A stretch of DNA of 62,269 bases, the filler included, from Basidiobolus ranarum (Eukaryota): NCBI GenBank assembly GCA_040143965.1. It is 21 parts of 21 records of this genome, joined end to end, with 100 filler letters (N's around TTAATTAATTAA, not from the genome) between each part and the next. Parts side by side here need not be neighbours in the genome. Positions count along the whole stretch, not along the records: positions 1 to 2,882 come from JASJQH010002898.1; 20 more parts are not named here. One strand, given 5' to 3'. Under the pieces are notes generated by a model, which saw nothing but the letters and a program-made list of their open reading frames with translations, was not told the DNA's origin and made no database searches. Position 1 is the first letter of the stretch, and each line of letters opens with the position of its first letter. A program made the translations under genes and the position numbers. This document shows, one piece after another, positions 1 through 59,414 of this stretch.

Positions 1-348
1 AACTGAAGCAATATGCTGTTGTCCATTGTGGCGCTTCTCAATCGAGGCAACATGTTTTTCACCATTATGACGCTTCTTAACTGAAGCAACATGTTGTTGG
101 CCATTGTGACGTTTCTCAACTGAGGCAACATGCTGTTGGCCATTATGACGTTTCACGACTGAAGCAACATGTTGTTGGCCATTGTGACGCTTCTCGACTG
201 AAGCAACGTGTTTTTCGCCATTGTGACGTTTCTCTACTGAAGCGACATGTTGTTGTCCATTGTGACGTTTCTCGACAGAAGTAACACTACCGACTAATGC
301 TAGAGAAGCCAAGGCCAATAATGTAAGGCTGATAGAGGTGAAACGCAT
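1..348 (-). CDS. Secreted KEX2-processed repeat protein (KEP) precursor A, 3'-truncated by the window edge
   Basis: Manual translation from ATG at 348 (absent from the ORF track): MRFTSISLTLLALASLALVGSVTSVEKR, then 13-aa units HNGQQHVASVEKR, HNGEKHVASVEKR, HNGQQHVASVVKR, HNGQQHVASVEKR, HNGQQHVASVKKR, HNGEKHVASIEKR, HNGQQHIASV... Hydrophobic signal peptide, KR sites, TATAAAA on the minus strand near 493-499. Confidence 0.9.
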   Translation of the reverse strand, partial: MRFTSISLTLLALASLALVGSVTSVEKRHNGQQHVASVEKRHNGEKHVASVEKRHNGQQHVASVVKRHNGQQHVASVEKRHNGQQHVASVKKRHNGEKHVASIEKRHNGQQHIASV

Positions 349-1222
349 GGTGGAAGATTTCTTGCTGACGATAGGTATGTGATTTAGTAGAGTTGCTTTG
401 GTATTGTCCTGATATTCGTTTTGTTTGAGTTTTCTGTGTTGAACTAGAAAGAGAAACTTGTTTGATCCATCTGTATACATTTCTCGGGCTCTTTTATATG
501 TTCATTGAATTCGTCTTATCCTTGAACCAATTTGATCACTGTATACTACTTCGGAAGATATAAAAATCCGTTGAGTGCTCTGCAATCTAAATATCTCCTG
601 AGTCGGATGTGATAGTAAGCTGCTTGTAGGAGGCTACATTTATATTTCAAAGCTTGTAGGCGATTAGTATTGCTTGATCTCATGCACAATATTCAGCCAC
701 GATCTAATTTCTGTTGATAAGCGATACTCTCATAGTTGATATGATTAAGTTTTAGTGAGCTCATTACTACTATCCAGGGTTGTCTTATGACGAGCTATTA
801 ATCTTGCAACATGTGGATCAAAGAAAGGGAGATTTTCTATATATCTTAATATTCTGTTGAGGAAATAAATACCATTAATAATCAAGAAGATTCTAAGGAG
901 TTTATGCTCAAATAAGAGGTAAATAGGGAAGTTAATTAGCTATTCTAATCAAATGTTTTTACTGATGTATTGCAAATTATGTTGAGTTGGTAAGCATGCA
1001 CTACTTGTTCCGCAGAACAACAAAGAAAGACCCAAAGTTAATCCAAATAGCAGTATATGTTTATTTAAGAATCCGAATAATATGAGAGATGTTAAACGTC
1101 GATGATCTGATGGCATGGAATATCAAAACTCTCTAGGGTATATATAACATCCTTATGTGTATATCAGAGTCAGGTTGCCATTAACATAACATATTGGGAT
1201 GGTTGATGGTATTGACCATATC

Positions 1223-1747
1223 CTAATTATCAGCACGCTTCTCAACATCAGCCACGTGTGGCCCGTTGTGACGTTTCTCTACATCAGCAATGTGCGGGCC
1301 ATTATGTCGCTTTTGAACTTCAGCTATGTGTGGTCCATTGTGGCGCTTTTCAACATCAACTATGTGCGGCCCATTATGGCGTTTTTCTATATTGGCAATA
1401 TGTGGTCCATTATGACGCTTTTCAAAATCCTCTATGTGTGGCCCATTGTGTCGTTTTTCCACAGTGTTTACATGTGGACCATTATGCCGTTTCTCTACAT
1501 TAGCGATGTGTGGTCCGTTGTGTCGTTTCTCAATGCTGTTTACGTGTGGGCCGTTGTGACGCTTCTCAACATCGACAATGTGGGGCCCATTGTGCCTCTT
1601 CTCTGCGGTTACCATCATTACTCCATCGGATCTCTTACCTCCGAAAGCTCTTTTAGCTAGAATTTGTGAGTCAGCCTTTATCCCGATACCAGCTAAGGCC
1701 AATGAAATCAAGGCCAAGGTAGTTAAGCTGCAATAATTGAAACGCAT
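1223..1747 (-). CDS. Secreted KEX2-processed repeat protein (KEP) precursor B, complete, 174 aa
   Basis: Signal peptide MRFNYCSLTTLALISLALAG, short KR-delimited pro-segments (AFGG, SDGVMMVTAE), ten 12-aa units HNGPH(I/V)xx(V/I/F)(E/Q)KR, tail ADN-stop. Third codon positions vary while HNGPH and KR are invariant. TATAAAA on the minus strand near 1858-1864. Confidence 0.93.
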   Translation of the reverse strand: MRFNYCSLTTLALISLALAGIGIKADSQILAKRAFGGKRSDGVMMVTAEKRHNGPHIVDVEKRHNGPHVNSIEKRHNGPHIANVEKRHNGPHVNTVEKRHNGPHIEDFEKRHNGPHIANIEKRHNGPHIVDVEKRHNGPHIAEVQKRHNGPHIADVEKRHNGPHVADVEKRADN

Positions 1748-2454
1748 GTTGTCGTGAACTCCTTTGAACTACAACGGTGTTTATATTTGGTGAGAGTTTT
1801 CTGGGATACTTGAGCTGTAAAGTAATTGATTTTCTACTTGTTCTCTCCTTGCGATCATTTTATAGGGTCAGATTACCTCACCCTTCCGAAACGCTCAGTA
1901 CATAAGTCTTGCTGGTGCAACTTCCAGTATTACATCGATTGTTATGTCAGGGTACTGCATGCAAGTTTCATTGCGTAAATTTTTTCAAATACCAAATATG
2001 AAAGAAGTCTGTACATCTTGGCCATATAATATTTGAGAAGTAGCTTGCAATTAATTATCACTGGATTAGTTGGCAATGAAAAAACCCTTGAATACTGCAC
2101 TATACCTCACTGAAATATCTCATTCCAATGGCCCACATACTGTATATTTTACTAGCATATATAAGCAGCTAATAACGAAGTTTACTGATTTTTTCAAGAG
2201 TATCCCAATTCCTTTCAGTGACTTGTTATAATTATTTGCAAGATTGGATTTGCATAAATAGAGAATATAACTGGGAATTTTTAAGGTGTAATATCTGCTT
2301 TTATTTTGAATTTGGATAATTTGGGGTAATATAATAGATGATTGCAAAATACTATTGGTATTAGCATTGTGGGATCATCATTTAATAAGCCTACATTGTA
2401 GTTTGGAGAACACTTTCTAGTTGGGTAGCAATTGAATACTTTCACCTGAACTCT

Positions 2455-2770
2455 TTAAACGGATTTTGCAACATCAGCCACGTGTGGTCCATTGTGACGC
2501 TTCTGAACATTATTTACATGTGGACCATTATGGCGTTTCTCTACATTAGCGATATGAGGTCCATTGTGTCGCTTTTCAACAGTGTTTACATGCGGACCAT
2601 TGTGGCGTTTCTCTACATTAGCGATGTGTGGTCCGTTGTGTCGTTTCTCAATGCTGTTTACGTGTGGGCCATTGTGACGCTTCTCAACACTATTCACGTG
2701 TGGACCATTGTGGCGTTTCTCAACATCCACTATGTGCGGTCCGTTGTGTCGTTTTCAACACTGTTTACAT
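2455..2770 (-). CDS. KEP precursor C, 5' end missing; eight HNGPH units
   Basis: Same 12-aa repeat as precursor B, ending HNGPHVADVAKSV-stop. Repeats extend upstream of the tracked ORF to about 2770, with a 1-nt deletion in the A-run near 2752-2755. No signal peptide is visible before the contig end. Confidence 0.8.
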
Positions 2771-2882
2771 GCCCCCGCGTACGGGGGGGGTGGGTGGAAG
2801 AGGCATTCCAGGTTGGTGTAGGAGAAAAACCGGTAGCGGTTATATACCCAACAGACATGTTAGCAAGCGCAAAATTAATCGC

Positions 2883-2982
2883 NNNNNNNNNNNNNNNNNN
2901 NNNNNNNNNNNNNNNNNNNNNNNNNNTTAATTAATTAANNNNNNNNNNNNNNNNNNNNNNNNNNNNNNNNNNNNNNNNNNNN
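2883..2982. other. Artificial contig linker, first of 20
   Basis: N44-TTAATTAATTAA-N44 gives stops in all frames. The others start at 5864, 8844, 11824, 14801, 17777, 20753, 23727, 26700, 29672, 32643, 35614, 38584, 41552, 44518, 47482, 50444, 53402, 56359 and 59315. Contig lengths fall steadily from 2882 to 2855. Confidence 0.99.
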
Positions 2983-3281: not shown

Positions 3282-4083
3282 ACTGGCATTGATGTGAAGA
3301 AACACTTGTCAGTTAGAAATGCCTTGGCTAAACAGGCTGTTCACAAGTTACTTGCTGTTACACCACCCAATATATCTTATAATGGATGTTAAAGGCTTCT
3401 CAAACAGTTTGTGATACCAGTCTGGAATATGGAGTACATCTGCTCCCACTCAACCAAAGAGACTACTCTAAGCTTGATAGATTCATCAGCTACTGCCTCA
3501 GGCTGCTGATGCCTGACTTGCCTGAGACTCCATATGATCATGCTCTGAATGGAACTTTTTGATTCTTCCCGTATCATATTAGAGAAGTTTTACTCAGGGC
3601 AAAATTTCTACTTCATCTAAATGACTGTAGAAATCCACTGATTAAGAAGTGGCTAGCCACACCATCATCAAATGCACTATCATGCTGGAAATTGATACAA
3701 GATGATCCTCTTGCTACTGCATTGGCTTTACAGCTGCATGAAACAAAACAGCCTAAAATTGTTGCTATAGACTTCCAGCCCAACCTTTGGAAGCAAAACC
3801 TTGCCTCTAAGGCACCTTTCTTGATTCCCATTATTCCAGGCTTTTGTCCTATTGTCCATCTGGTTTGTACTGAGTACCTTCCTTTCCACTTACCACCTTT
3901 GCCCCTTAACACTATACTTACATCCTGTGAACTTGATTACATTGGTCATCAAGTCAAGTATGGATATGATCAAGTATTGTCATAATATCTTAAAAAGTTG
4001 ATATCTTGATTGTCACTTTGTTTAGATTAGTATTTAAGCTAAATTAAGTCCACACCATCTGGTGCTTTTCATCCTCCTAACCC
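3282..4083 (+). mobile_element. Degenerate non-LTR retrotransposon (LINE) 3' part
   Basis: Allowing one frameshift and stops, it reads GIDVKKHLSVRNALAKQAVHKL...LLKQFVIPV/EYGVHLLPLNQRDYSKLDRFISYCLRLL...REVLLRAKFLLHLN, resembling the post-RT 'F.RP.LEYG...CLR' region of LINE ORF2. The 3' UTR ends in CCTCCTAACCCTAA. Confidence 0.65.
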
Positions 4084-4525
4084 TAAGAAGTGGCTAGCTA
4101 CACCATCTTCAACTAAAGTATCATGCTGGAAACTGATACAATTTGACCCTCCTGTGTCTACTTTAGTTATACAACTACATGAAACAAAACAGTCCAAGAT
4201 TCTTGCTGTAGACTTCCAGCCAGACTTTTAGAAGCAATATCTTGCCTCCAAGACACCTTTTTTGATCCCCACTATTCCAGGTTTTGTCCTATTGTCCATT
4301 TGGCTTGTACTGAATATCTTCCTTTCTGCTTACCACCTGTACCCCTTAACACTAGATTTAAATCCTCAGAACCAGATTACATTGGTCATCAAGTCAAGTA
4401 TGGATATGATCTAATTTTGTCACAATATCATGGAAGACTGATGTTATATTTGTCACTTTGTTTAGATTAGTATATAAGCTAAATAAATTCCACACCACCT
4501 GCTGCTTTTATCCTCCTAACCCTAA
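4084..4525 (+). mobile_element. Second head-to-tail copy of the LINE 3' end (about 440 bp)
   Basis: Diverged direct repeat of 3643-4083, again ending CCTCCTAACCCTAA. Confidence 0.7.
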
Positions 4526-4889
4526 AAGTGCTTCAAGAGTATTAAAAGTACAAAGGGAAAAATGCGGTGCAAGTATGCAGCAAGTGGCTTCAGAAGAAGA
4601 GTATTCAGCTTGACATATAATATGATATTGATCATGTGGACATCTGGCAAGAACTTAACACAGAGTGGTACTATGTTGCAGGATATCTGCCAGATAGCTG
4701 GAAGAATGCTGATTCAGCAATGTTAACACAATAGTGGGCTTTGATGGAGATACTGATACAAAGTCATGTTGGATATGAGCTAAACCTTGGGTATTAAGTA
4801 CTGTTGTAAGCATGCAGAGTTTGGGTTACATTTTTGACACATGTGTTGATCTATAGTGTTCTGATATTATAGCCAATTATGTGTAACTA

Positions 4890-5034: not shown

Positions 5035-5963
5035 AACAAGAGCAACTTTATTCCCTCATTGTTTTATTATAATACAAGAAATGACTTGCTTATAGTCTTT
5101 GGAAAACTTGAGCACTGCTGACTATTCTAATGTTAGTAACTTTTGCGTATTGCAAGAAAAGTGTGTACATGATAGATTGTATTATCCTAATCCCCCACTA
5201 TCTTGTGTACTTGGAAAAATACCTCTCCCAACTGATGAAAATGGCACAGTTTGAACATCTATAGAGTCATATGGTTAACTGCCTAAATTTCAGTATGCTG
5301 TTATTCAATATCTTGGTTCCAAATTCAAGTAAAATATTGTTATCAACTAGGAAGCTCTCCGGTTAGATGACAAAAAAACTACCTAGATATATAAATTGAG
5401 GACGTGACCAGAATCTCGGATTTAGCGTAAATCAAGCAGTAGATGTGTAGAACAAATTTTGATTTATTATATCACAGCACAGCAACTTGTACTCGAGCCA
5501 GCATTTCTCTCTTCTTAGCGATTTTTGAGTATAATGGCTTTTGTGTGCTTGACCCTACCCTCGTCTTTCTATATTTGGACTTGGCAAAAAAAGGCATTCC
5601 CTTTAGCTGAAAATTCTTAAAAGAGTTAGAGAGGATATGTGAAATGAGATTAGTGGTTAATAGATAGGACTGATGTGAAGCTGTATTGAACTGAGGTAAC
5701 TACAGACTATTCAAGGGATATATTTTAAGAAGAGCGTTGATTCAAGAATTGTGTCCATTCGGCATGTTCCTGTTCTTTGCTGCATTTTTCGAATCTCATC
5801 CCATTTTTTCCTTTGACAAGGCGCACGATCTTGCCAAATGCTCGAAAACGAACTATTTGCCCTNNNNNNNNNNNNNNNNNNNNNNNNNNNNNNNNNNNNN
5901 NNNNNNNTTAATTAATTAANNNNNNNNNNNNNNNNNNNNNNNNNNNNNNNNNNNNNNNNNNNN

Positions 5964-6258: not shown

Positions 6259-7327
6259 TATCTGTTGCTATTACTTACGATTAGTCAGAAGGCTGCGAGG
6301 AAATAAGCTCAGGCTTTTAACAACAAACATTTAGACATAGGAGCCCAATCTGGATAGAATCAGGGCTTTATCCTACTGAAACTCGTCAATAGTAGACATA
6401 TATATTAGTAAGTACCTATTTTCATGTATGCGCTTGCCGACTGTATGCAAAAAGTAAATAAAGTTGCTGGTACTAACTTACTCTCGTGAGTCCCCTAGTA
6501 TATACCACAATGAAGTTTATTTTCGAATAAATGCCTGAACTAATCGCTTTATTTCATTGTTGAAGATATTGAAAATAGTGAATGCACCTTTTAATTAGGT
6601 TTGTGAGTATTTTGAAGATTTTAGTAAATCGAATCTGCATAAAATGAGAGCGCCATGATAAAGTACCGAGTAGTAATCATTTTTTGGCTTCTTATGAAAT
6701 GAGTGAAAGCGTATACAACAGAATTGATATCAAATGACACGTTGGATACTTTTATTATGGATATAGGAGTAGATGGAATAGAGTTTTTAACGTTAGTAAT
6801 CTTGGATCGTTCAAGTTATTTAAGTAAAAATGGTGGATTAACATAGCCTTGACATCACCTGAACACATCTCTCCATTTGAGTCGTGCCTAAATGTAAGAT
6901 TGATAATACTTGACATCTTATTATGTTATATCTGAACTTGAAGTAATACTTTACAATACATTTGCAATTTTTCATTTGTAATCATGCTAGCAAATAAGAT
7001 CTTGTGAAGAGCAAAGAATATTATCATAGTAATTACAACTGCTTCGATTACGTTAATACATGACAAGTGTTACTACAAATGGCTATTTTCAGTGTCATCG
7101 CACGCAATATCCCCAGTATAAATATGATCAATTGTCTATAACCATACTTGTAGCACCTTTATTCATTTTGGTGCATAAGCGTACACAAGGTTCGCAGCAT
7201 TCTGAAATACTTTGCTTTTTACTAGAATGAGGATGTTCCTTCACAAATAGTGAAGTTTTTTACTTCCATTTTTTTATAAATAGTCACTAGATCAACTGTT
7301 TTATCATCACCTCCAACATCTCTGAAA

Positions 7328-7717
7328 ATGAAACTATATATCTTCGCTTCGATCATCTGTATGGCATCAAGTGTGATGGCTCTTACTAAGCATACTGGAA
7401 CCGTCAGTGGCCAAATGTACATGAGTGGTGCATTCTATGATTCCGTTCAAGCTAGTGTAAATATTGATGGTATTAACCACAAGATTAAGTGGGAAGGTAC
7501 CGCCACCTCTGGTCAAAGATATTGCGACCCCTCCGAAGACGCTTGCATAGACTTCAAGAACGGAGGAAACCCCGTTATTTCTTACTGTCAAGGGTCCATT
7601 ACCTTGCCCACCAAGTGTAAGATTACCAAGAGAAAGGCTTGTGATGATGGTAGATGTCCCGTACAGGTTTACTGGAACATTGAGAAGCAGTCATTCAGCA
7701 TCAATTGCTCAAATTAG
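7328..7717 (+). CDS. Small secreted cysteine-rich protein, 129 aa, unknown function
   Basis: Intronless ORF with AAAATG start context, signal peptide MKLYIFASIICMASSVMA, seven Cys in the mature part, and TATAAATA about 50 nt upstream. Confidence 0.8.
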   Translation: MKLYIFASIICMASSVMALTKHTGTVSGQMYMSGAFYDSVQASVNIDGINHKIKWEGTATSGQRYCDPSEDACIDFKNGGNPVISYCQGSITLPTKCKITKRKACDDGRCPVQVYWNIEKQSFSINCSN

Positions 7718-24201: not shown

Positions 24202-25587
24202 TCAACTGAAGCTATTAAGAAAAGTCACATAATCTGAGTCTTTGATACTTATAGAGTCAAGTGCTGCTTGGCGTGACTCCGCACTGATGCGCTCGTAGAG
24301 TGAGCGGTCATTTAGCAATGAATTTATCTCATTGATCCAAGGTTGAATATCATTCTGAGGGACCTTCAGCGGTCCATGTCGCGTGATTTCTTCTGCATCC
24401 AATTCTCGCTCGTTGGTTGCCAGAACAACCGGAATAGTGGCATGAAGAATACCACACTTTGCTTCAGGAACTCCTCCCGCATTACTACAGACAACCGGAA
24501 TTCCTCGAAGCATAGCTTCCATAACAACATTACCAAAGGTCTCTAACCAAAGCGATGGTGCGACAAGAATCTTGGTGCGTTTCCACACTGGCTCTAGTGT
24601 GGGCATTGGGGCTAGTAGCTCAACATTGGGAAGATCGGCCAGCTTAGAAGCTTGGTATTCAGTAACATCCCAACTTCTTACCGCAATAAATTTAGTGTCG
24701 GCCATTTCTTCAGCTACCGGGTAAAAGATAGAGAAGCCTTTGAGTGTTCCCGGATTTATAGCCACAACGCAAGCGTCTGGATTATCGAAGTTCGTGTAGC
24801 TGGGAGCGTTGGAAGCATCAAAACGACTTGGGTGTAATGGAAAATGTTTTACAGGAATATTGACACTACCGTACTTATAAATGTATTCCTGGATTGCCTT
24901 GCTAACTGCCCAAACCCCTGTTACCTTCGACTCTAACACTTTCGTGTAATATGGATTATAATCCTCAGGCCATGATGCTGATATAACTGGGCTTACATCT
25001 TGGGGACCGAAGGGTAAAATATTGCTTACGTGAGTAATAACAATAGTCTTGATGCCACTTTTTTCTTGTGGCATAAACTCAGAGGCAGCATATAAAGAAA
25101 GTGAATCACTGCAAAGAAAATGGGTTGGCTGAAACCGACGAACTTCCTTTCGAATTAGCTGGGCGTAGTACTCCAGCATCTTGTTCTCCTCTCTTCCCAG
25201 AAGCCAATCTGCAGGATATACTGAAGGTATAAACCCATTCCCTCCCAAATCATCGACACAAAAAGCGACTACAGAAAGTTGATTCACTGTTAGCCTATAA
25301 AGTCGCAACTCTTTCGGAGTTTCAGTTGGGGGATGAAGAATTTCTACTGAATTGACCGTCACTTGCTTGTCCTCAATTTCATGCGAAAAGCATCCAACAA
25401 ATAATAGAGCCTCGTGACCCTGAGATTTCAGCGCTTCTAGAAATGCTTTATCGGAGCGTGGTCCACCAGCGGCTGCAAATAATCCCGGAAATACCTGGAC
25501 AATCATCACGCGAATTGGATCGCCATTCGCAAGAGGTGTGTTCACAGAGGTCGACTGTGCAATGCTTGACTCATCAGATGCCAACAT
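24202..25587 (-). CDS. Glycosyltransferase, GT-B fold, family GT4, intronless, 461 aa
   Basis: N-terminal GG loop (AAGGPRS...LEALKSQGH), INPGTLKG, and the E-x7-E motif PSLWLETFGNVVMEAMLRGIPVVCSNAGGVPE. TATAAATA on the minus strand about 50 nt upstream of the ATG. Confidence 0.92.
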   Translation of the reverse strand: MLASDESSIAQSTSVNTPLANGDPIRVMIVQVFPGLFAAAGGPRSDKAFLEALKSQGHEALLFVGCFSHEIEDKQVTVNSVEILHPPTETPKELRLYRLTVNQLSVVAFCVDDLGGNGFIPSVYPADWLLGREENKMLEYYAQLIRKEVRRFQPTHFLCSDSLSLYAASEFMPQEKSGIKTIVITHVSNILPFGPQDVSPVISASWPEDYNPYYTKVLESKVTGVWAVSKAIQEYIYKYGSVNIPVKHFPLHPSRFDASNAPSYTNFDNPDACVVAINPGTLKGFSIFYPVAEEMADTKFIAVRSWDVTEYQASKLADLPNVELLAPMPTLEPVWKRTKILVAPSLWLETFGNVVMEAMLRGIPVVCSNAGGVPEAKCGILHATIPVVLATNERELDAEEITRHGPLKVPQNDIQPWINEINSLLNDRSLYERISAESRQAALDSISIKDSDYVTFLNSFS

Positions 25588-26191: not shown

Positions 26192-26699
26192 TTACTGAAT
26201 GTACTCTGCAACCTTGGAGACATGGGGATCAAACATCAGTTCATGATGTTCAGCTTCAATGGTATGTATAGTAACCCGAGGAGAGTATTGCGACCAGCCA
26301 TAGCATACTTGCTGGTCACTATCCCATTTTTCTGAGATAGCTTTAATCAAAACAATACTTGTCTTCAGTTTCTTTGCAGGTGGAGAGTATTTGTTCATCA
26401 ATTGTGTGTTATTCTCGATTTTGTCACAAATCATTCGAACAGCGGTTTCTTCGAGGTTCCATTGACCCAATCGAGAAATCAGCTCAAGATACTCCTGACT
26501 GGAATGAGCTATATTGGTTCCCGTTGATGCCAGAGGGGCTAGAGTGTCGATCACGGTCACTTTCGCTACCTCCAAGCCCTGTGCTTCAAGTTGACGCGCG
26601 GCCTCAAATGCCACAAGCCCACCAAAGGAATATCCATGGAGATAGTAAGGTCCCTCAGCTTGAATACGGCGAATGACTGTCAAATAGCTGGCGGCCCTC
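26192..26699 (-). CDS. C-terminal type I thioesterase domain, probably the end of an NRPS/PKS (5'-truncated)
   Basis: AASYLTVIRRIQAEGPYYLHGYSFGGLVAFEAARQL...VIDT...GW...EHHELM: GxSxG nucleophile, Asp and His triad positions. The frame is open to the contig edge. Confidence 0.9.
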
Positions 26700-26799: not shown

Positions 26800-29461
26800 C
26801 AAAATGATCAAAAACTGCCTAATTTCTGGAATTCAAATCAGCCCCCCCAAGCAAAATGGAAATGTGTGAGGGTTGTATATATGGGAAAAATGCCAGGCAA
26901 CTGTTCAGTAGCTCTGGTTTAATCAAATCTGTCAAAAAATTGGATCTAATACATTCAGATTTGTGTGGTCCTATGCAAAATTTATCTTTAGGTGGAAAAA
27001 GATATTTAGTCACATTTATTGATGATTATCTAAGATGCACTTGGGTCTATTTATGGAAAGAAAAGAAAAAGCTCTCTATATCTTGAGAGGTTTTAAAACA
27101 TTTGTGGAGACTGAAACTGGAGTTAAAATCAAGAAAATACATACTCATAATGGTGAAGAATATACTTCAACACTGTTTAAGCACTTTTGCAAAGTTCATG
27201 GAATTAAGCCAGAAACTACTGCCCTCTATTCACCTCAACAAGGTGGAGTTGCTGAAAGAGCTAACAGGAAAGTAATAGAAATGGCAAGATCTATGATAAA
27301 TGCACAAAATTTATCTCAAACCTTTTGGGCAGAATCTGTTGTTACAGCTGTAAATGTGAAGAATAGGAGTTTTCCCAGAAGTCTGTCTAACTCTACACCA
27401 TATCAAGCTTGGTTTGGAGTTAAACCTAATGTAAAACATTTGAGGATCCTTTGATGTATTGCTTATGTCAAAATTATGACCAAAAATTGGTCTAAATTTA
27501 ATTCAAAAAGTAAGAAATGCTTATTTCTGGGTTAATGTATTTGAACTAAAGCCTGCACACTCTATGATACCAAAATTTCCAAGTTAACCAAGTCCTGGGA
27601 TGTATTGTTCAATGAAAATGAAAAATATGCACCCACAATGATCTCAGATGATGATAAAAATCAATTTTCTCCTGATCCAATCATTCAAATTGATTCAAAC
27701 AAAACAATGCAGAAAATAGCATTCCTGTGGACCCTTCAACCAAAATTTTGCCTACTGAAGTGCCCATTACAATACCACAAGTTGTAGTACCTCTATCCCA
27801 AACCAGGATAACAAATTGGATCAGAAATAGCCCTGAATACTATATCATTAAGTCTCAAAATTGGGCCTATGCCTGCACAGATCAAATACATGAAACCCAT
27901 ATTGTAAAAGAGGCCCTGAATGGCCCTCACACAAAATTTTGAAGAGCTGCAATGGCTGATGAGTACCAGCCTTGCCTGATAATCAAACTTGGATTTTAAC
28001 CAACTTACTAGACAATAGAAAATCAATTGGCTGCTAATGGGTGTTTAAGATTAAGTATAAAACTGATGGCAATATAGAAAGGCACAAGGTTAGATTAGTA
28101 GCCAAAGGCAATTCCCAAGCACCAGACATAGATTATAAAGAAATGTTTGCTCCTGTAGCAAAGTTTAACTCAATTAGATTGATTTTAGCAATTGCAGCTA
28201 AATATCAGCTTGTTATACATCAAATGGTTGTTAAAACTGATTTTTTGAATGATGAGCTTTCTAAGGATATCTATATGGACCAGCCAAATGGCTTTGTGGA
28301 CCCAGAAAACATTAAAAAAGCTTGCAGACTCCTGAAAACACTCTATGGTTCAAAACAATCTCCAGGAGCATGGAATAGAAAGATAGATGCTTTTTTGGAG
28401 ACACCCAAATTCCAAAAGAGTAATGCTAACTATATGATCTACTTCAGGCCAGATTAGACAAATCCAGTTTTATTAGCCTTATATGTAGATGGCCTTATGA
28501 TAGCAACCAATGACTAGAAGACTTGGGAGAAAACCAAATCAAGCTTCTCTGCCAAATTTAAAATGACTGATCTTGGTGAACTAATGTACTATATTGGAAT
28601 TCAAATTAAGATAAATTGAACTACCAAAACAATAACTTTAAACCAGTCTAAATATATCCTAGATATACTAAAGAAATTTAAAATGGAAGAATGTAATCCA
28701 GTATCTACCCCAACAGAGACAAATCTTAACTTGACCAAAAATGGTTTAAATCAGATGTTTTTGGATACAAATGAAAGCCAAAAATTTCCTAATCAATCTA
28801 TGATTGGTAGGTTGATGTACAATACAGTTGAAACATTGCCAGATATTGCATATTTGATGGGAGTCATGTACCAACATCTTCAAAATTATGGATCTGATCA
28901 AATCATAGCAGTTCAGCAGATTCTCAGATATTTCAAAGGTATTGTGGTTATGTGCTTAAAATACAAATATTGTGGATCAAACTTTGATCTGATGGGATAT
29001 TCAAACACAAATTGGGGAAGAGATATTGAAGACAGGAGATCTACAACAGGATACTTATTTCTTTGCTGTAATGAAGCTATTTCTTGGAATTCAAAGAAAC
29101 AACCTACCATATCACTTTCAACCACAGAAGCTGAATATATGGCTGCCTGTGAAGCAACAAAAGAAGCAATATGGTTAAGAAAACTCTCAACAGATTTGGT
29201 TTTTCTCAAAATTCACCAACTATAATATTTCAAGATAATTAAAGTTATATCAAATTAGCTAAAAATCCCATGTTTCATAATAGTAGCAATCATCTAGATA
29301 GTAAGTATCATCTCATTAGACAGACTATAGAGAATAAGTTTATTGACTTAACTTATTGTTGTACAGAAAACTTGATTGCTGATGTATCAACCAAAGCATT
29401 AGCTACACAGAAATTTGAGAAATTTAGACCTTTATTAGAATTAGTTTATATGATTATTTAG
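26800..29461 (+). mobile_element. Ty1/Copia pol pseudogene: integrase, reverse transcriptase, RNase H
   Basis: CEGCIYGK, IHSDLCGPM, FIDDY, PQQGGVAERANR, VRLVAKG, HQMVVKTDFLN, LYVDG (YVDD), RRSTTGY, SWNSKKQ, STTEAEY, IADVSTKAL; many stops and frameshifts. Confidence 0.96.
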
Positions 29462-33335: not shown

Positions 33336-35420
33336 TCCTAAAAAAAATAAAATTGATATGATCTGGATAAGATCCACCCTTTGAAATTGCAAACCATCAG
33401 AGAACCATCACAATATTGGTGGCCTATATTCTGCTAGGGATTCTGATGGTGTGACAGTGGTCTCTTGATGGTATTTTGATGGTATTTGTACATGTTAATA
33501 TATTGATCCTAATATTTGGCATACATTATTAAGTTCTGCCAATTTTTGCAAAAATATAATTTTTGAATGGCAAATTACTAGGTTTACTGCTGTAGGAATT
33601 CAAATCAATATGCATGCCTTTATTTAGATATTTTTGGCTTTTTATTCCAGCCATAATGATAATCAAAAAAAATAAGAATCTTGTAGTGTTTAGTCTGTAT
33701 ATATGCACATACTTGACTGATCAGAGATAACTCAACAACATCAATATGCTTTACAAGCAAACTAATGGTGGAAAAATTGCTAAATATCTGAAATTTTGAA
33801 TAGCACTGAGACTTGGCAAATAGCTGACTCTTTTTACTGTTCACAATGAGAATAAGCTCTTGGATTTTGGCAAATTTCCATAAAGAATTCAGCCAATATA
33901 TCCCCAACTTGCTGACAACAAATGTCCAGCCACAAATAGATGTGTCATTGCTTGAATACATTACCACATGGCTAAAACAAAAATACTACATATTTTAATC
34001 TATCTCACCAGAAGTCTGTCTTGCAGCTTTCCTAGAAGTACCATCAGATTATTACACAAACAAATAAGCCCAAATTATAGAGCTACTTACTCTGTGCCTA
34101 TGGATTGGGCTTTGTTGCTGTTATTGTGCTCAAACAATGCAAAAACCCTTGAGCACATTGAAAAGAGCCCTTTGTTGGAAGGTTAATATACTCTGGAGTC
34201 TCCTTAACCTATTGCATTACATCCATCACTGATTTTACTAATACATTATGAACTACATGAGCATACAGCAATACTGACAATTTCACATGGAGCATTATTT
34301 CACCACAGGTATGCTCCATTGGGAACTCCCTGAATGTATAGCAAGGGCCTATAATCTCTAAGCATTGTGAAAGATGCAGCAGGGAATGTATTGAATACCA
34401 GCATAGATTCAGTCTCTCTTCTCTAAACCAGAAATAAAGTTTTTCATTTCCAATTACAAAATCTTTGCACAGCTGCTGTCTCTGCATGAGATCTGCGAAT
34501 GTGAGTTGATGCCATCAGAATATATTAATAATATCCACAAACAACTTCTAATGTTGCCAATATTTATCATGCAGAAATCTTTTCAAGTTTCCATTTGAAT
34601 GTATACAAATCCAATACATCCAGTCTTTGCATTTGAATAAATGCCTAGACAAGTGGATATTGATGGGAGTCCTGGTAAAATATGATGGTATCTTGACATT
34701 TTCAAGCATTTTCCCAATTGATTCAAACTTTGATCCTAAGATCCTATCTCAAATGGCTCATTTGTATTTAATTAACCACTATATAGCTGATTAAGTAGTA
34801 TTTGAATGTTGTCAAATAGTGAGTGCGTAGTGCCTAATGGGAAGCCCTGGCTCCAGCTGATCCCCTTTAGCAATATAATCTTAGGCTTACAGCTAATACC
34901 AAGTTTGATGTTAGACTGACTATTTGGTGAATTGATATCAGAAATCATGTGGAAATCTAACCAGCCTCTTGATGAAAAAATCATGGAGCTTAGTCTTGTA
35001 TTTGGAAAGTAGTAATGCATGTGCCTGATAGAGTAGACTCCATTGATTTGACAAAATGTACAGCAAGATAGTGCATTGTGCCTACAAAAACCTCCAAGTT
35101 TACTGATGGCAGGAGTGTCACAACATATTCAATGATATTAGCTTTAATTGAATATTCACCAATCTAAATCCCATTAGATAGCAATTGAAATTTCACAATC
35201 AAAGGCTCCAAGAGGCTATCTGTAAGCACTGATGAATTAGGTCCAGATATGATGGTTAGTATCAAAATATTATGACTCTTATACCACTCAAAAGGAGGAA
35301 GATATAAGTTAATTAAAATTATTGGCCAGCAAGCCTTTCCAGTGGTACTTTTGTTTAGCAAGAAACCATCCAGAGCCAATGCAAATGTATGATCATATGT
35401 GTTCTTAAAGAAACCTTGAC
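33336..35420 (-). mobile_element. Degenerate CACTA/EnSpm transposon (Tnp2/Transposase_21 plus DUF4218-like region) with 3' terminus
   Basis: ALDGF...WPIILINLYLPP.EWYK..NIL...ISGP...DSLLEPLI and HSLLHL...IGPCYTF.EFPMEHTCG. The terminus at 33336 is shared with six other copies. Confidence 0.88.
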
Positions 35421-35613
35421 CCCTAACAAAATAACATTGATTTCATCTGGATTGGATCCACCCTCTGAAAGAGCAAAACCATCAGAGGACCGTCACAATA
35501 TTGGTGGCTTGCATTCTGTTAGGGTTTTTGATGGTGTGATGGGGGTTTCTTGATGGTATTTTGTTGGGATTCATACATGTTAAAATATTGATTCTCAAAT
35601 TTGGCACTCCTTA
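35421..35613 (-). mobile_element. CACTA 3' terminus nested in the preceding copy
   Basis: Starts CCCTAACAAAATAA and interrupts ACCTTGAC|TTTT, which is seen intact at about 57571-57582. Confidence 0.85.
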
Positions 35614-47581: not shown

Positions 47582-48174
47582 GACATTTGTTGACTGCAAG
47601 TCAGGGATATATTGGCTGAATTCTTTATGGAAATTTGCCAAAATCCAAGAGCTTATTCTCATTGTGAATGGTAACAAGAGTCAGCTATTTGCTAAGTGTC
47701 AGTGCTATTCAAAATTTCAGATGTTTAGCAATTTTTCATCCGTTAGTTTGCCGGTAAAGCATATTGATGTTGTTGAGTTATGTTTAATCAGTCAAATATG
47801 TGCATATGTAGAGACTAAAAACAACAAGATTCTTGTATTTTTTGATTTTCATCATGGCTAGAATACAAAGCCTAAAATATCTAAATAAAGTCATGCATAT
47901 TAATTCAAATTCCTACAACAGTAAACCCAGTACTTTGCTATTTGAAAATTATATTCTTGCAAAAACTGCTGGATATTGAATAACGCATGTCAAATTTGAG
48001 GATCAATATTTTAACATGTATGAATACCGTTAAGATACTGTCAAGAAATCACCGTCACACCATCAAAATACCTGGCAGAATGCAAGCCAACAATATTGCA
48101 ATGGTTCCCTGACAGTTTTGCTATTTGACAGGGTGGATCTGGTCCGGATCAAATTGATTTTATTTTTGTTAGGG
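47582..48174 (+). mobile_element. CACTA 3' end (innermost nested copy)
   Basis: Ends ...TTTTATTTTTGTTAGGG and is followed directly by mid-transposase sequence (YYPNT). Confidence 0.88.
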
Positions 48175-49838
48175 TACTATCCAAATACAATACTAGACTC
48201 CATCACTTTACCCTCAAGAGCCCAGACAGATTTCAACACAATCATGGATATCATTTCACCAAATAGTCAGTCTAACATCAAACTTGGAATCAGCTCTGAG
48301 CCCAAGATTGTATTGTTAAAGGGGATCCGCTTGAGCCAAAGCTTCCCATTAGGCACTATGCACTTACTATTCAACAGTAATCTAATACTACTTACTCAGC
48401 TATATAGTGGAAAATTTAATATGAAAGATCCATTTGAGGTAGAATCAAAGCTTGAACAAATTGGGAAAATGCTTGAAAACATCAAGATACCATCATATTT
48501 TACCAGGACTCACATCAACATCCACTCATCCAGGAATTTATTTAGAAGCAAAAACTGGAAGTATTGAATTTGTATCCATTCAAGTGAAATTTTGGAAAGA
48601 TTTCTGCCTGATAAGTATTGGCAACATTGGGAGTTGTTTGTCAATATTGTTATATATTCTCATGGTATCAGCTCACATTGGCAGATCTCAGGCAGATGCA
48701 GCAACTGTGCAAAGATTTTGTAATTGGACAGGAAACACTTTATTACAGGTTTAAAGAAGATAGATTGCATCTATGACAGTATTCAATACATTCTGTGCTA
48801 TATCTTTCACAATGCTTCAAGACTATAGGCCCTTGTATACATTCTGGCAGTTTGCAATGGAGTGCACCTGTGGTGAAATGATGCTCCAAGTGAAATTGTC
48901 ATTATTGCCATATGCTAATATGATTAACAATGTATCAGCAAAATCAGTTACTGATGTAATGCAAAGGGTTAAGGATACTCCAGAGTATATTAACCTTCCA
49001 ACAAAGGGCTCTTTTCAATGTGCCCAAAGGTTTTTGCATTGTTTGAGCACAATAACAGTAACAAAGCCCAATTTATGGACACAGAGTAAGTACCTCAATA
49101 ATATAGACCAATTTGTTTGTGATAATTGGATGGTATTTTCAGGAAAGCTGCAAGACCAACTTCTTGGTGAGATAGATCAAGATACACAGTAGATTCATTT
49201 TAGCTACAGAGTAATCTATTCAAGCAATGACACGTCCACTTGTGACTGGATATTTTTGACTGCAAGGTGGGCTATATTGGCTGAATTCTTTATGGATATT
49301 TCCCAATATCCAAGAGCTTATACTCATTGTGAACAGTAACAAGAGTCAGCTATTTGCCAAGTGTCAGTACTATTCAAAGTTTTGGATGTTTATCAATTTT
49401 CCGCCATTAGTCTGCTGTTAAAGCATATTGATGTTGTTGAGTTATGTCTGATCAGTCAAGTATGTGTATATGTAGTGACTAAGCACCACAAGATTCTTGT
49501 ATCTTTTGAATCTTATTATGGCTGGAATGCAAAGTGAAAAATATTTAAATAAAGGCATGCCAATTAGTTTGAAATCCTACAGCAGTAAACCCAGTAATTT
49601 GCCATTTGAAAATTAGTGTTTTGCAAAAATTACCAGATATTGCATTATGCATTCCAAATATGAGGATCAATATTTTAACATGTAAAAATACCATCCAAAT
49701 ACCATCAAGAAACTACCAGCACACCATCAAAATTGTTGGCAGAATGCAAGCCACCACTATTTTGATGGTTCTCTGATGGTTTTGATATTCACAAGGGTGG
49801 ATCCAATCTGGATCATATTGACTTTAGTTTTGTTAGGG
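48175..49838 (+). mobile_element. CACTA 3' half (middle nested copy)
   Basis: SFPLGTMHLLF, KIPSYFTR, WQFAMECTCGE; ends TTTTGTTAGGG. Confidence 0.88.
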
Positions 49839-56574: not shown

Positions 56575-57931
56575 GGCAGTCAATTTTCTTTAAACCTGTA
56601 TTCAAGTTTTTCATATCCAATTACAAAATCTTTGCACAGTTGCAGCATTTGCCATTTATTAGCCAATGTTAGTTGATGCCATAAGAGTATGTTCAAAATA
56701 TTTAGAAACAACTTCCAATGAAGCTATTATTTATCATACAATAATATTTTCAAGTTTCCACTTAAATATATACAAATCAAATACTTCCAGCCTTTGCATT
56801 TGAATAAACACAAAGATGAGTGGATTTTGATTGGAGTCCCAGTAAATACAATGTTATATTGACATTTTCAAGCATTTTTCCTTTTGCATTAAACTTTGCT
56901 CTTGTCATGATTGGTGCATTCTTATTGCGTTTTCCTCTATATAGCTGAGTAAGTAGTATTAGAATGTTGTTTAATAGTTAGTGCATAGTGCCTAATAGGA
57001 AGCACTGGCTCTAGCTGATCCCCTTTAGCAATATAATCTCAGGCTTATGGCTAATCCCTAGTATGATATTAAATTTACTATTTGGTGAAGGGATATCAGT
57101 GAGCATACTGAAATCTGACTAGGCTATTGATGGTAGAATCTTGGAGTTCATTATTGTATTTGGATAATAGTAGTGCCTATGGCTGGTAGAGTAAACTCCA
57201 TTGCTTTGACAAAATCTACAGCAAGCTGGTGCATTTTGCCTGCAAAAACCTCCAATTTTACAGATGGCAGAAGTGGGACCAATACAGACCATGACTTTTG
57301 CTTCAATAAAATATTCAGCCATCTGAATACTATTTGATAACATATCAAATTCCACAATCAAAAGCTCTAAGAAGCTATCTATAAGCACTGGTGATTTAGG
57401 CCCAGATATGAAGGATAGGATCAAAATATTATGACTCTTATACCATTCAGAAAGAGGAAGAATTGAGTTAATTGAAATAATTGGCAAGCTGGCCTTTCCA
57501 ATGTAATATTTTTCAGTGTGAAACCATCCAGAGCCAATGCAAATGCATGGTTATATGCATTCACACAGAAACCTTGACTTTTCAGATTCTGGTAATAATA
57601 TCCACCAAATATATTGGTAAAATCTCTAACTTTATAGTGAGTACTGTAGTATTGGATCAACTATATATTTTTGGGTGATTTTATCAAAACTTTGAGATGC
57701 GGAATCAATGGTATGTATGCCAAATATGAACAATATTTACCTAATTCGGTGATTGCCATTTGTATGCAAACAGTACATGACTTCAGGTTTTGAGATTACT
57801 GGTGAAAGCCAAAAAACCATTTGGACTTGAAGGTAGTTCAATTACCGAGGAATTTTTAGTCATACAACTTACATGTGCTTTCCACTTGTACCAGGTCTGT
57901 GGCAAGCAACAGGTGCCAACCAACTGTAGTA
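56575..57931 (-). mobile_element. Degenerate CACTA transposase region (outer copy)
   Basis: FALALDGF, PIISINSILPLSEWYKSHNIL...ISGPKSP..IDSFLE, ACCRFC. Confidence 0.88.
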
Positions 57932-59314
57932 CTCTAACAAAAATAAAATCAATTTGATCCGGCCCAGATCCATGCTGCAAAATAGTAAAACTATAAGAGA
58001 ACCTTCACAATATTGTTAGCTTGCATTCTGCCAGGAATTTTGATGGTGTGACAGTAGTTTCTGGATGGTATTTTGAAAGTATTCATACATGTTGAAATAT
58101 TGATGCTGAAAATTGGCATGCTTTATTCAATATCAGGCAATTTATGCAAAAATCTATTTTTTGAATTGCAAATGACTGGGTTTACTGCTGTAGGAATTTG
58201 AATTATTATGCATGCCTTTATTTAGTTATTTAAGGCTTTGCATTCCAGCTATGATAGGAATTAAAAGATACAAGAATCTTGTAGTGTTTAGTCTCTTCAT
58301 ATGCACACACTTGACTGATTAGATATAACTCAACAACAGCAACATGCTTTAAATGCAAACTACTAGTGGAAAAATTGCTAAACATCTGAAATTTTGTATA
58401 GCACTGACACTTGGCAAATAGCTGACTCTTGTTACCATCACAACAAGAATAAGCTCTTGGATTTTGGCAAATTTCCATCAAGAATTGAGTCAATATATCC
58501 CCAACTTGCAGTCAACAAATGTCCTGCCACAAGTAAATGTGTCATTGTTTGAATAGATTACCCCATGGCTAAAACAATAATATTGAGTATCTTGATCTAT
58601 CTCACTAAGAAGTCTGTCTTGCTGCTTTCCTACAAATACCATCGGATTATCACACCAACAAATTAATCCAAATTAAAGAGGTACTTACTCTATGTCCATG
58701 GACTGGGCTTTGTTGCTGTTATCATGCTCAAACTATGCAAAAACCCATGAGCACATTGAAAAGAGCCCTTTGTTGGAAGGTTAATAAACTTTGGAGTCTC
58801 CTTGACCCATTGCATTACATCCATCACTGATTTTGCTGATACATTGTAAATCAGTTTAGCATATGGTAATCCTGACAATTTTACATTGAGCATCATTTCA
58901 CCACAGGTGCACTCCATTGGGAGCTCCCAAAATGTATAGCAAGGGCCTATAATCTCTAAGCAGTGTGAAAGATGCAGCAGGGAATGTATTGAATACCAGC
59001 ATAGATTCAGTCTATCTTCTTACACCTGTGATAAATTTTTTCATATCCAATTACAAAATCTTTGCACAGTTGCTGTATCTGCCAATGTGAGTTGATGCTG
59101 TAACAATATATTAACAATATCCACAAACAACTCCCAATGTTGCCAATACTTATCAGGCAGAAATCTTTTCAAAATGCCACTTGAATATATACAAATCCAA
59201 AATTTCCAGTCTTTGCATTTGAATAAATGCCTAGATGAGTGGATATTGATGGGAGTCCTGGTAAAATATGATGGTATCTTGACGTTTTCAAGCATTTTCC
59301 CAATCAATTCAAAC
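57932..59314 (-). mobile_element. CACTA 3' half nested in the preceding copy
   Basis: Terminus CTCTAACAAAAATAAAATC at 57932; KIPSYFTRTP...FKCKDWK and MECTCGE. Confidence 0.88.
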
Positions 59315-59414
59315 NNNNNNNNNNNNNNNNNNNNNNNNNNNNNNNNNNNNNNNNNNNNTTAATTAATTAANNNNNNNNNNNNNNNNNNNNNNNNNNNNNN
59401 NNNNNNNNNNNNNN

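Follow-up and report, generated by a model that had tools for sequence, protein, structure and literature searches.

A tandem family of probable KEX2-processed repeat protein genes encoding an HNG-x-H peptide core in Basidiobolus ranarum

The stretch of Basidiobolus ranarum DNA analyzed here (assembly GCA_040143965.1; 62,269 bases, hereafter the window) carries, within positions 1–2770, three paralogous arrays of short peptide-coding repeats, all on the minus strand, which are referred to as genes A, B, and C. A degenerate pattern for Lys-Arg-His-Asn-Gly (AARMGNCAYAAYGG) gave 25 matches, all located in 23–2754 and none elsewhere in the 62 kb, while the chance expectation obtained by dinucleotide shuffling was 0.02 on average and 1 at maximum. 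The matches were distributed as 7 units in gene C, 10 in gene B, and 8 in gene A, in agreement with the three same-strand paralogs and at least 25 Lys-Arg (KR)-delimited units claimed in an earlier reading of this DNA (hereafter the original prediction). The arrays were also picked up by Tandem Repeats Finder, and no other frame with at least four KR sites was found in the whole window. The positions of these genes and of the elements around them are summarized in Table 1.

Table 1. Features on the array-bearing contig and at its edge, given as positions in the window.
Feature	Position	Strand	Remarks
Gene C	1..348	-	3'-truncated at contig end; start Met 348-346; 7 units, the last cut
TATAAAA	492..498	-	About 150 nt upstream of gene C start codon
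Gene B	1223..1747	-	Complete; 174 aa + stop
TATAAAA	1858..1864	-	117 nt upstream of gene B start codon; candidate core promoter
Gene A fragment	2455..2754	-	8 in-frame HNGPH-type units; no start codon or signal peptide on contig
Ninth-unit tail (HVNSVE) of gene A	2754..2771	-	One base off the array frame
Contig-end sequence	2772..2882	-	About 110 bases with C8 and G5 runs; unrelated to the arrays
Linker	2883..2982	.	Joins the peptide-gene contig to an unrelated one; not a within-scaffold assembly gap

The window is composed of 21 separate contigs placed end to end, between which 20 copies of a linker of the form N44 + TTAATTAATTAA + N44 are inserted (for example, the one listed in Table 1, that at 5864–5963, and the last one at 59315–59414). 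The pieces between the linkers shrink steadily from 2882 to 2855 bases, which is the pattern expected of a fragmented assembly whose contigs were ordered by length before being concatenated. The three-array cluster is confined to a single 2882-bp contig (window 1–2882), of which the three genes are the only genes, and its genomic context ends at 2882. The G+C of this contig is similar to that of the others. Since the linkers separate contigs, reasoning on context across a linker is invalid. Genes for a nonribosomal peptide synthetase (NRPS), a thioesterase, a glycosyltransferase, an aquaporin, and transposons were considered as genomic neighbors and rejected, as the linkers place them on other contigs.

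Gene B starts with Met-Arg-Phe followed by a hydrophobic stretch ending in Ala-Leu-Ala, which together make up a signal-peptide-like region of residues 1 to ~19 (window 1747 to ~1691). Two additional KR sites lie in the pro-region, and the 51-residue leader is the longest non-repeat stretch of this gene. It is followed by ten units of 12 amino acids (aa), HNGPH[IV]xx[VIF][EQ]-KR, 9 of which are distinct, and by a C-terminal tail of Ala-Asp-Asn before the stop codon. The predicted model of gene B in the ESM Atlas has a predicted local distance difference test (pLDDT) score of 0.51, and such a low value fits an unstructured precursor. Gene C also begins with Met-Arg-Phe and shows a signal-peptide-like stretch of ~17–21 residues, after which a short spacer ending in Val-Glu-Lys-Arg leads into units of 13 aa, HNG[QQ/EK]H[VI]AS[VI]x-KR. 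Another in-frame ATG is located at 480, which probably sits upstream of the transcript start of gene C, because it is merely 18 nt behind the TATAAAA of this gene.

Gene A differs from the other two at both of its ends. A TGA codon stands immediately before its first Lys-Arg, and at its final junction Lys-Ser takes the place of Lys-Arg, with only Val left before the stop codon. The contig-end sequence beyond the ninth-unit tail has no similarity to the upstream regions of gene B and gene C or to the rest of the window. Gene A is hence probably a truncated, non-functional copy, and is possibly a frameshifted copy or results from faulty assembly or a miscounted homopolymer close to the contig end. 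An intron restoring its frame was also considered and rejected, as no AG-bounded junction that brings the array in frame was found by eye. The claim that the cluster comprises three secreted precursors therefore holds for the number of arrays, but N-terminal secretion signals were visible by eye only in genes B and C, and gene A has neither an ATG nor a signal. Likewise, gene B alone is complete, while the contig ends within gene C and gene A is apparently truncated.

The units of the three arrays are highly uniform in their N-terminal part. His-Asn-Gly opens 25/25 units, and a second His follows at position 5 in 18 of them (HNGPH) and at position 6 in the other 7 (HNGQQH or HNGEKH); these are the two positions given in the original prediction. 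KR is located ahead of all 25 units and behind 23 of the 24 complete ones. At all 24 junctions listed, the residues around the putative cleavage site are Val/Ile/Phe/Ala at P4, Lys at P2, Arg at P1, and His at P1'. Cys, Tyr, Trp, Met, and Leu are absent from all 25 units, and Phe occurs once in total. The net charge of the predicted peptides is acidic, which was evaluated by hand count to be about −2 for the HNGPH type and about −1 for the gene C type.

Nucleotide variation among the units indicates that the repeats are maintained at the peptide level. In the 18 units of genes A and B, the first, second, and third codon positions showed nucleotide diversities of 0.185, 0.112, and 0.538, respectively, and the proportions of synonymous and nonsynonymous differences (pS and pN) were 0.80 and 0.14. 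When the comparison was limited to the seven codons of H-N-G-P-H and K-R, from which the Lys-Ser-ending unit A8 was dropped, pS was 0.88 and pN was 0.00; the synonymous-only variation of these codons stated in the original prediction is hence reproduced with A8 set aside. A similar tendency was detected for gene C, which gave a pS of 0.56 and a pN of 0.07 for its 6 complete units, the cut seventh being excluded. As the synonymous sites are near saturation while the core is invariant, the peptide should be under selection; judged from this substitution pattern, the repeat is protein-coding and under purifying selection, and is not a DNA satellite. The strongest constraint was observed on His1-Asn2-Gly3 and on the second His, while positions 7–8 drift and the spacer between the two His residues differs by paralogue type (P vs. 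QQ/EK). The constraint on [IV] after the second His, on the aliphatic P4, and on the acidic P3 can be explained by the cleavage site. That on His1-Asn2-Gly3 and the second His exceeds what a kexin site needs, so that the function of the released peptide probably resides in its N-terminus.

The non-coding flanks of genes A, B, and C were also compared, and no promoter or flank element shared among them was detected. Because the flanks are dissimilar while the core is kept, the copies are old, and the conservation of the core does not result from recent copying. An exception is a block of three units, A3–A5 and B2–B4, which differ by 1, 1, and 4 nucleotides, all synonymous. This block suggests that a duplication or a gene conversion took place more recently.

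[quoted passage not shown] In the definition of Le Marquer et al. (2019; PMC6339444), a KEP has a signal peptide and three or more internal repeats with KR, RR, or KK between them. The arrays contain 7, 10, and 8 units, and dibasic sites of this kind separate the repeats in all three of them; the near-identical short repeats and the KR between each are the same as in known KEPs, and genes B and C have, as judged by eye, a signal-peptide-like start. Umemura (2020; PMC7329392) further applied a filter that removes proteins with a separated sequence of more than 100 aa and those whose repeats all fall short of 8 aa. The present units are 10–11 aa long after KR removal, and the leader of gene B stays well within that limit. 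The peptide length of 10–11 aa falls in the commonest size class of KEPs (9–24 aa), and tandem or duplicated copies and genus-restricted types, as found here, are typical of them. In the same survey, 7878 KEPs were collected from 1461 fungal strains, of which 2560 were unclassified singletons. The phylum densest in KEPs was Zoopagomycota, and the richest of the 1461 strains turned out to be Basidiobolus meristosporus CBS 931.73, which has 43 KEPs, many of them duplicated (PMC7329392). For Basidiobolus, a KEP type that is restricted to the genus and forms a tandem family is hence to be expected. The HNG-x(1,2)-H core has no match in any other protein searched, and searches of metagenomes and literature gave no relative either. 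The term "candidate undescribed peptide system" used in the original prediction overstates the case. The novelty lies in the core; the precursor class is already well described across fungi.

Searches for relatives were performed at several levels. A word-indexed homology search with gene B gave 1374 candidates, none of which reached an expect value (E) ≤ 0.001, and an exact look-up of gene B in a collection of 15 billion sequences found it absent; the ESM Atlas contains the gene B protein letter for letter. A feature search of this atlas returned fungal hypothetical proteins in its first two rows (0.87 and 0.85) and an MF_alpha cluster in the third (0.81), all of which are below the 0.9 bar and are regarded as leads only. 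An exhaustive HMMER search over 1.84 billion representatives gave 83 matches at E ≤ 0.001, and none of these 83 carries the KR-HNG-x-H motif. Among the 35 matches inspected in full, 33 were unrelated proteins or spurious open reading frames (ORFs) with a 12-residue period, and only two, P0042 and P0069, were KEP-like. The units of P0069, which derives from a JGI metagenome, begin with KR-HNPS. In JGI metagenome contigs, 81 pattern matches were obtained, none of which was confirmed by tblastn. A degenerate two-unit pattern gave 5 loci in these contigs, all being repeats of an 18-nt period; this pattern covers a period of 36 only, from which relatives with a 39-nt period would escape. Pfam gave sub-threshold chance matches only for genes B and C. 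In the main texts of the papers searched, none of four core strings (three core variants and the Lys-Arg junction) occurs as a peptide, the matches being a gene-name run or unrelated text. "HNG" is absent from the main texts of PMC6339444 and PMC7329392, whose supplementary sequence tables, outside the scope of this search, may list a related Basidiobolus KEP. The family is thus apparently lineage-restricted, as far as such sequence searches indicate.

The closest KEP-like look-alike, P0042, derives from an ENA assembly; it is an unnamed protein of 173 aa that contains an internal signal-peptide-like stretch. It has five units of QKDGPQIIDVE, four of which are followed by KR or RR, and it shares G-P-x-I-[IV]-D-V-E-K-R with the HNGPHIVDVE-KR unit of the present family. 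The alignment gives 45% over 75 residues, with a pairwise E of 9e-17 and a library E of 6.4e-6, and both proteins, P0042 and that of gene B, end with Asp-Asn. It differs from the present family by having Gln at both His positions, Asp in place of Asn, and one extra residue. When P0042 was used as a query to reach a named Basidiobolus family, only P0042 itself was recovered, so that this protein is an orphan too. From these sequence likenesses, homology between P0042 and the present family is plausible.

The processing of the precursors can be speculated by analogy to other fungal KEPs and to alpha-factor. The precursor would enter the endoplasmic reticulum via its N-terminal signal, Golgi kexin (Kex2) would cut after every Lys-Arg, and a Kex1-type carboxypeptidase would trim the two basic residues. 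The secreted products would then be 10-mers of HNGPH[IV]xx[VIF][EQ] and 11-mers of HNG[QQ/EK]H[VI]AS[VI]x that carry a free His at the N-terminus; the 10 units of gene B would give rise to 9 different peptides. [quoted passage not shown] The alpha-factor- and UstA-like organization of a signal peptide plus KR-delimited repeats that had been noted for this locus is hence seen in the sequence, with the signal identified by eye. In alpha-factor, X-Ala/X-Pro dipeptides recognized by Ste13 are placed after KR (PMC6339444), whereas every unit here has His-Asn directly after KR. No Ste13 trimming step would be expected because no such dipeptides follow the cut site. The copies of the present genes also vary in the middle, unlike those of alpha-factor, and no match to Pfam MF_alpha or MF_alpha_N (PF04648/PF05436) was detected up to an E of 1. 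A role as a pheromone is thereby left unsupported.

Our best guess is that the products are linear, unmodified or minimally modified extracellular peptides that act on the surroundings through signaling or interaction with other organisms. Linear peptides derived from KEPs were indeed observed by mass spectrometry in other fungi (PMC9769878). By analogy to most KEPs, a signaling or interaction role would be the default. Since the peptides are acidic and lack Cys, Tyr, Trp, Met, and Leu, they are unlike cationic antimicrobial peptides and the Tyr-containing cores of dikaritins. Several points weigh against the assignment and the role described above. The signal peptides of genes B and C were judged by eye, from Met-Arg, ~15 hydrophobic residues, and small residues at −3/−1. 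An orthologue is lacking in all searches, so that cross-species conservation is unusable. The middle of the unit varies, with 9 distinct units among the 10 of gene B, while the copies in pheromone precursors are near-identical. In addition, Coprinopsis KEP knockouts exhibited no phenotype (PMC9769878), and "signaling" is therefore a weak default.

A more specific possibility within the KEP assignment is that the two His residues bind Cu, Zn, or Ni; with an Asn-Gly turn bringing them close, the second His and the imidazole and free amine of His1 would coordinate extracellular Cu(II), Zn(II), or Ni(II). Coordination of metals by an N-terminal His is familiar chemistry. This sub-hypothesis is the most specific one available, and we consider it unlikely rather than implausible. 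Both His residues are invariant in 25/25 units even though the length and sequence of the spacer between them change (P vs. QQ/EK), positions 7–8 vary freely as would be expected if the liganding end alone matters, and the peptides are acidic by hand count. Two His per ten residues are a weak signature, however, and the invariant Asn-Gly is not required for binding. Furthermore, if P0042, with Gln at both His positions, is a true relative, the His residues are not conserved in the wider family. The siderophores reported for Basidiobolus are for Fe(III), which is poorly bound by His peptides, and this also counts against metal binding. A weak, circumstantial point in its favor is that Basidiobolus was reported to be heavily engaged in metal acquisition, with an expansion of siderophore NRPSs and a positive chrome azurol S (CAS) assay (PMC7466969). 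The narrower idea that the decapeptides form a ribosomally encoded, unmodified extracellular metal-binding ("metallophore") library capturing Cu, Zn, or Ni is distinctly improbable; if true, it would be the first KEP family with a role in metal acquisition or metal buffering, in a gut-dwelling and siderophore-rich fungus.

The precursor might instead be secreted intact, for example as a His-containing wall or matrix protein in which Lys-Arg is a part of the repeat. The disordered model of gene B agrees with this idea, as many repeat proteins are disordered, but the near-regular placement of Lys-Arg, found after 23/24 complete units with an aliphatic or aromatic P4 at 24/24 junctions listed, and the additional KR sites in the pro-region of gene B are not accounted for by it. 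With 13 KR sites in an unstructured chain passing through the secretory pathway, kexin cutting would be expected as in alpha-factor and KEPs (PMC6339444), and an intact protein is hence very unlikely.

About equally unlikely is a modified peptide, in which KR-bounded cores are cyclized or otherwise modified by neighboring enzymes to form a dikaritin/ustiloxin-type or another fungal peptide that is made by ribosomes and then post-translationally modified (RiPP). The precursors of ustiloxin and phomopsin (UstA-type, dikaritins) are secreted proteins with KR-bounded repeated cores (PMC7329392, PMC6339444), an architecture that the predicted precursors described here match, and the invariant Asn-Gly can be speculated to be a modification site. 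Their cores contain Tyr in a conserved EDYXI-like motif (PMC6339444), which is not present in the cores here; Tyr, Trp, and Cys occur in 0/25 of these and Phe is found once overall, so that the dikaritin-type core raised in the original prediction is disfavored. In addition, the single Basidiobolus type tabulated in Table 2 of PMC7329392, S-3, comprises 7 KEPs, all 7 of which are without a nearby DUF3328 gene.

A non-coding satellite DNA of 36/39 bp or a gene on the opposite strand, to which the Tandem Repeats Finder report and the open plus-strand frames at 1199–1660 and 2518–2934 might point, can practically be dismissed. Most of the variation falls on third positions of the minus frame, with a pN of 0 against a pS of 0.88 at the seven codons, and these third positions are by coordinates the first positions of the plus-strand ORF 1199–1660, whose frame is probably unconserved. 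Two of the genes have an in-frame ATG and signal-peptide-like start on the minus strand, and the proteins with a 12-residue period matched in the HMMER search are unrelated repeats. The plus-strand ORF 1199–1660 is, on this sequence comparison, a by-product.

Few of the many fungal KEPs have a known function. For the KEP family described here, the pinned N-terminal residues and second His together with the drifting middle provide an unusually sharp and cheap hypothesis for testing, in a little-studied gut-associated genus noted for its richness in KEPs and secondary metabolites. For now, the family is a further orphan type in a catalogue that numbers several thousand.

The other contigs of the window contain several unrelated features. 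On contig 7, a single frame that is open across the contig (17877–20752, minus strand) represents an NRPS fragment consisting of the C-terminal part of an AMP-binding domain, a PP-binding domain, a Condensation domain, and the start of the next AMP-binding domain. On contig 9, two minus-strand ORFs (24205–25587 and 26192–26699) encode a GT4 glycosyltransferase and, directly upstream of it, a protein with a thioesterase domain. This GT4 protein of 461 residues shares 81% identity with its match in Basidiobolus meristosporus CBS 931.73 and 63% with that in B. ranarum, after which the eukaryotic matches drop to ~35% in Glomeromycotina and chytrids, and many matches in JGI/ENA metagenomes and Logan assemblies have the thioesterase and GT4 domains fused in one protein. 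Such a pair is in line with reports of NRPS-type clusters that Basidiobolus gained by horizontal transfer (PMC7466969). On contig 3, an ORF of ~130 codons (7280–7714, plus strand) with an N-terminal signal-like stretch, several Cys residues, and no Pfam family may encode a small secreted protein. An exon-sized ORF on contig 21 (60198–60443, minus strand) matches the MCM P-loop domain, and its motif presumably resembles the MCM8 type; to our knowledge, MCM8 is missing from many Dikarya. Contig 2 has a 440-bp unit in two tandem copies (3643–4530) that match at 83% and hold open frames on both strands. Contig 10 carries a Ty1/copia-type retrotransposon (26823–29222, plus strand) with an rve integrase core and an RVT_2 reverse transcriptase spread over several frames, which is probably degenerate. 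Lastly, similar ORFs with a weak Transposase_21 (tnp2) match were observed on three contigs (34212–35442, minus; 48034–49189, plus; 57122–59019, minus), and they look like a repeated transposon family of the CACTA/EnSpm-like type.

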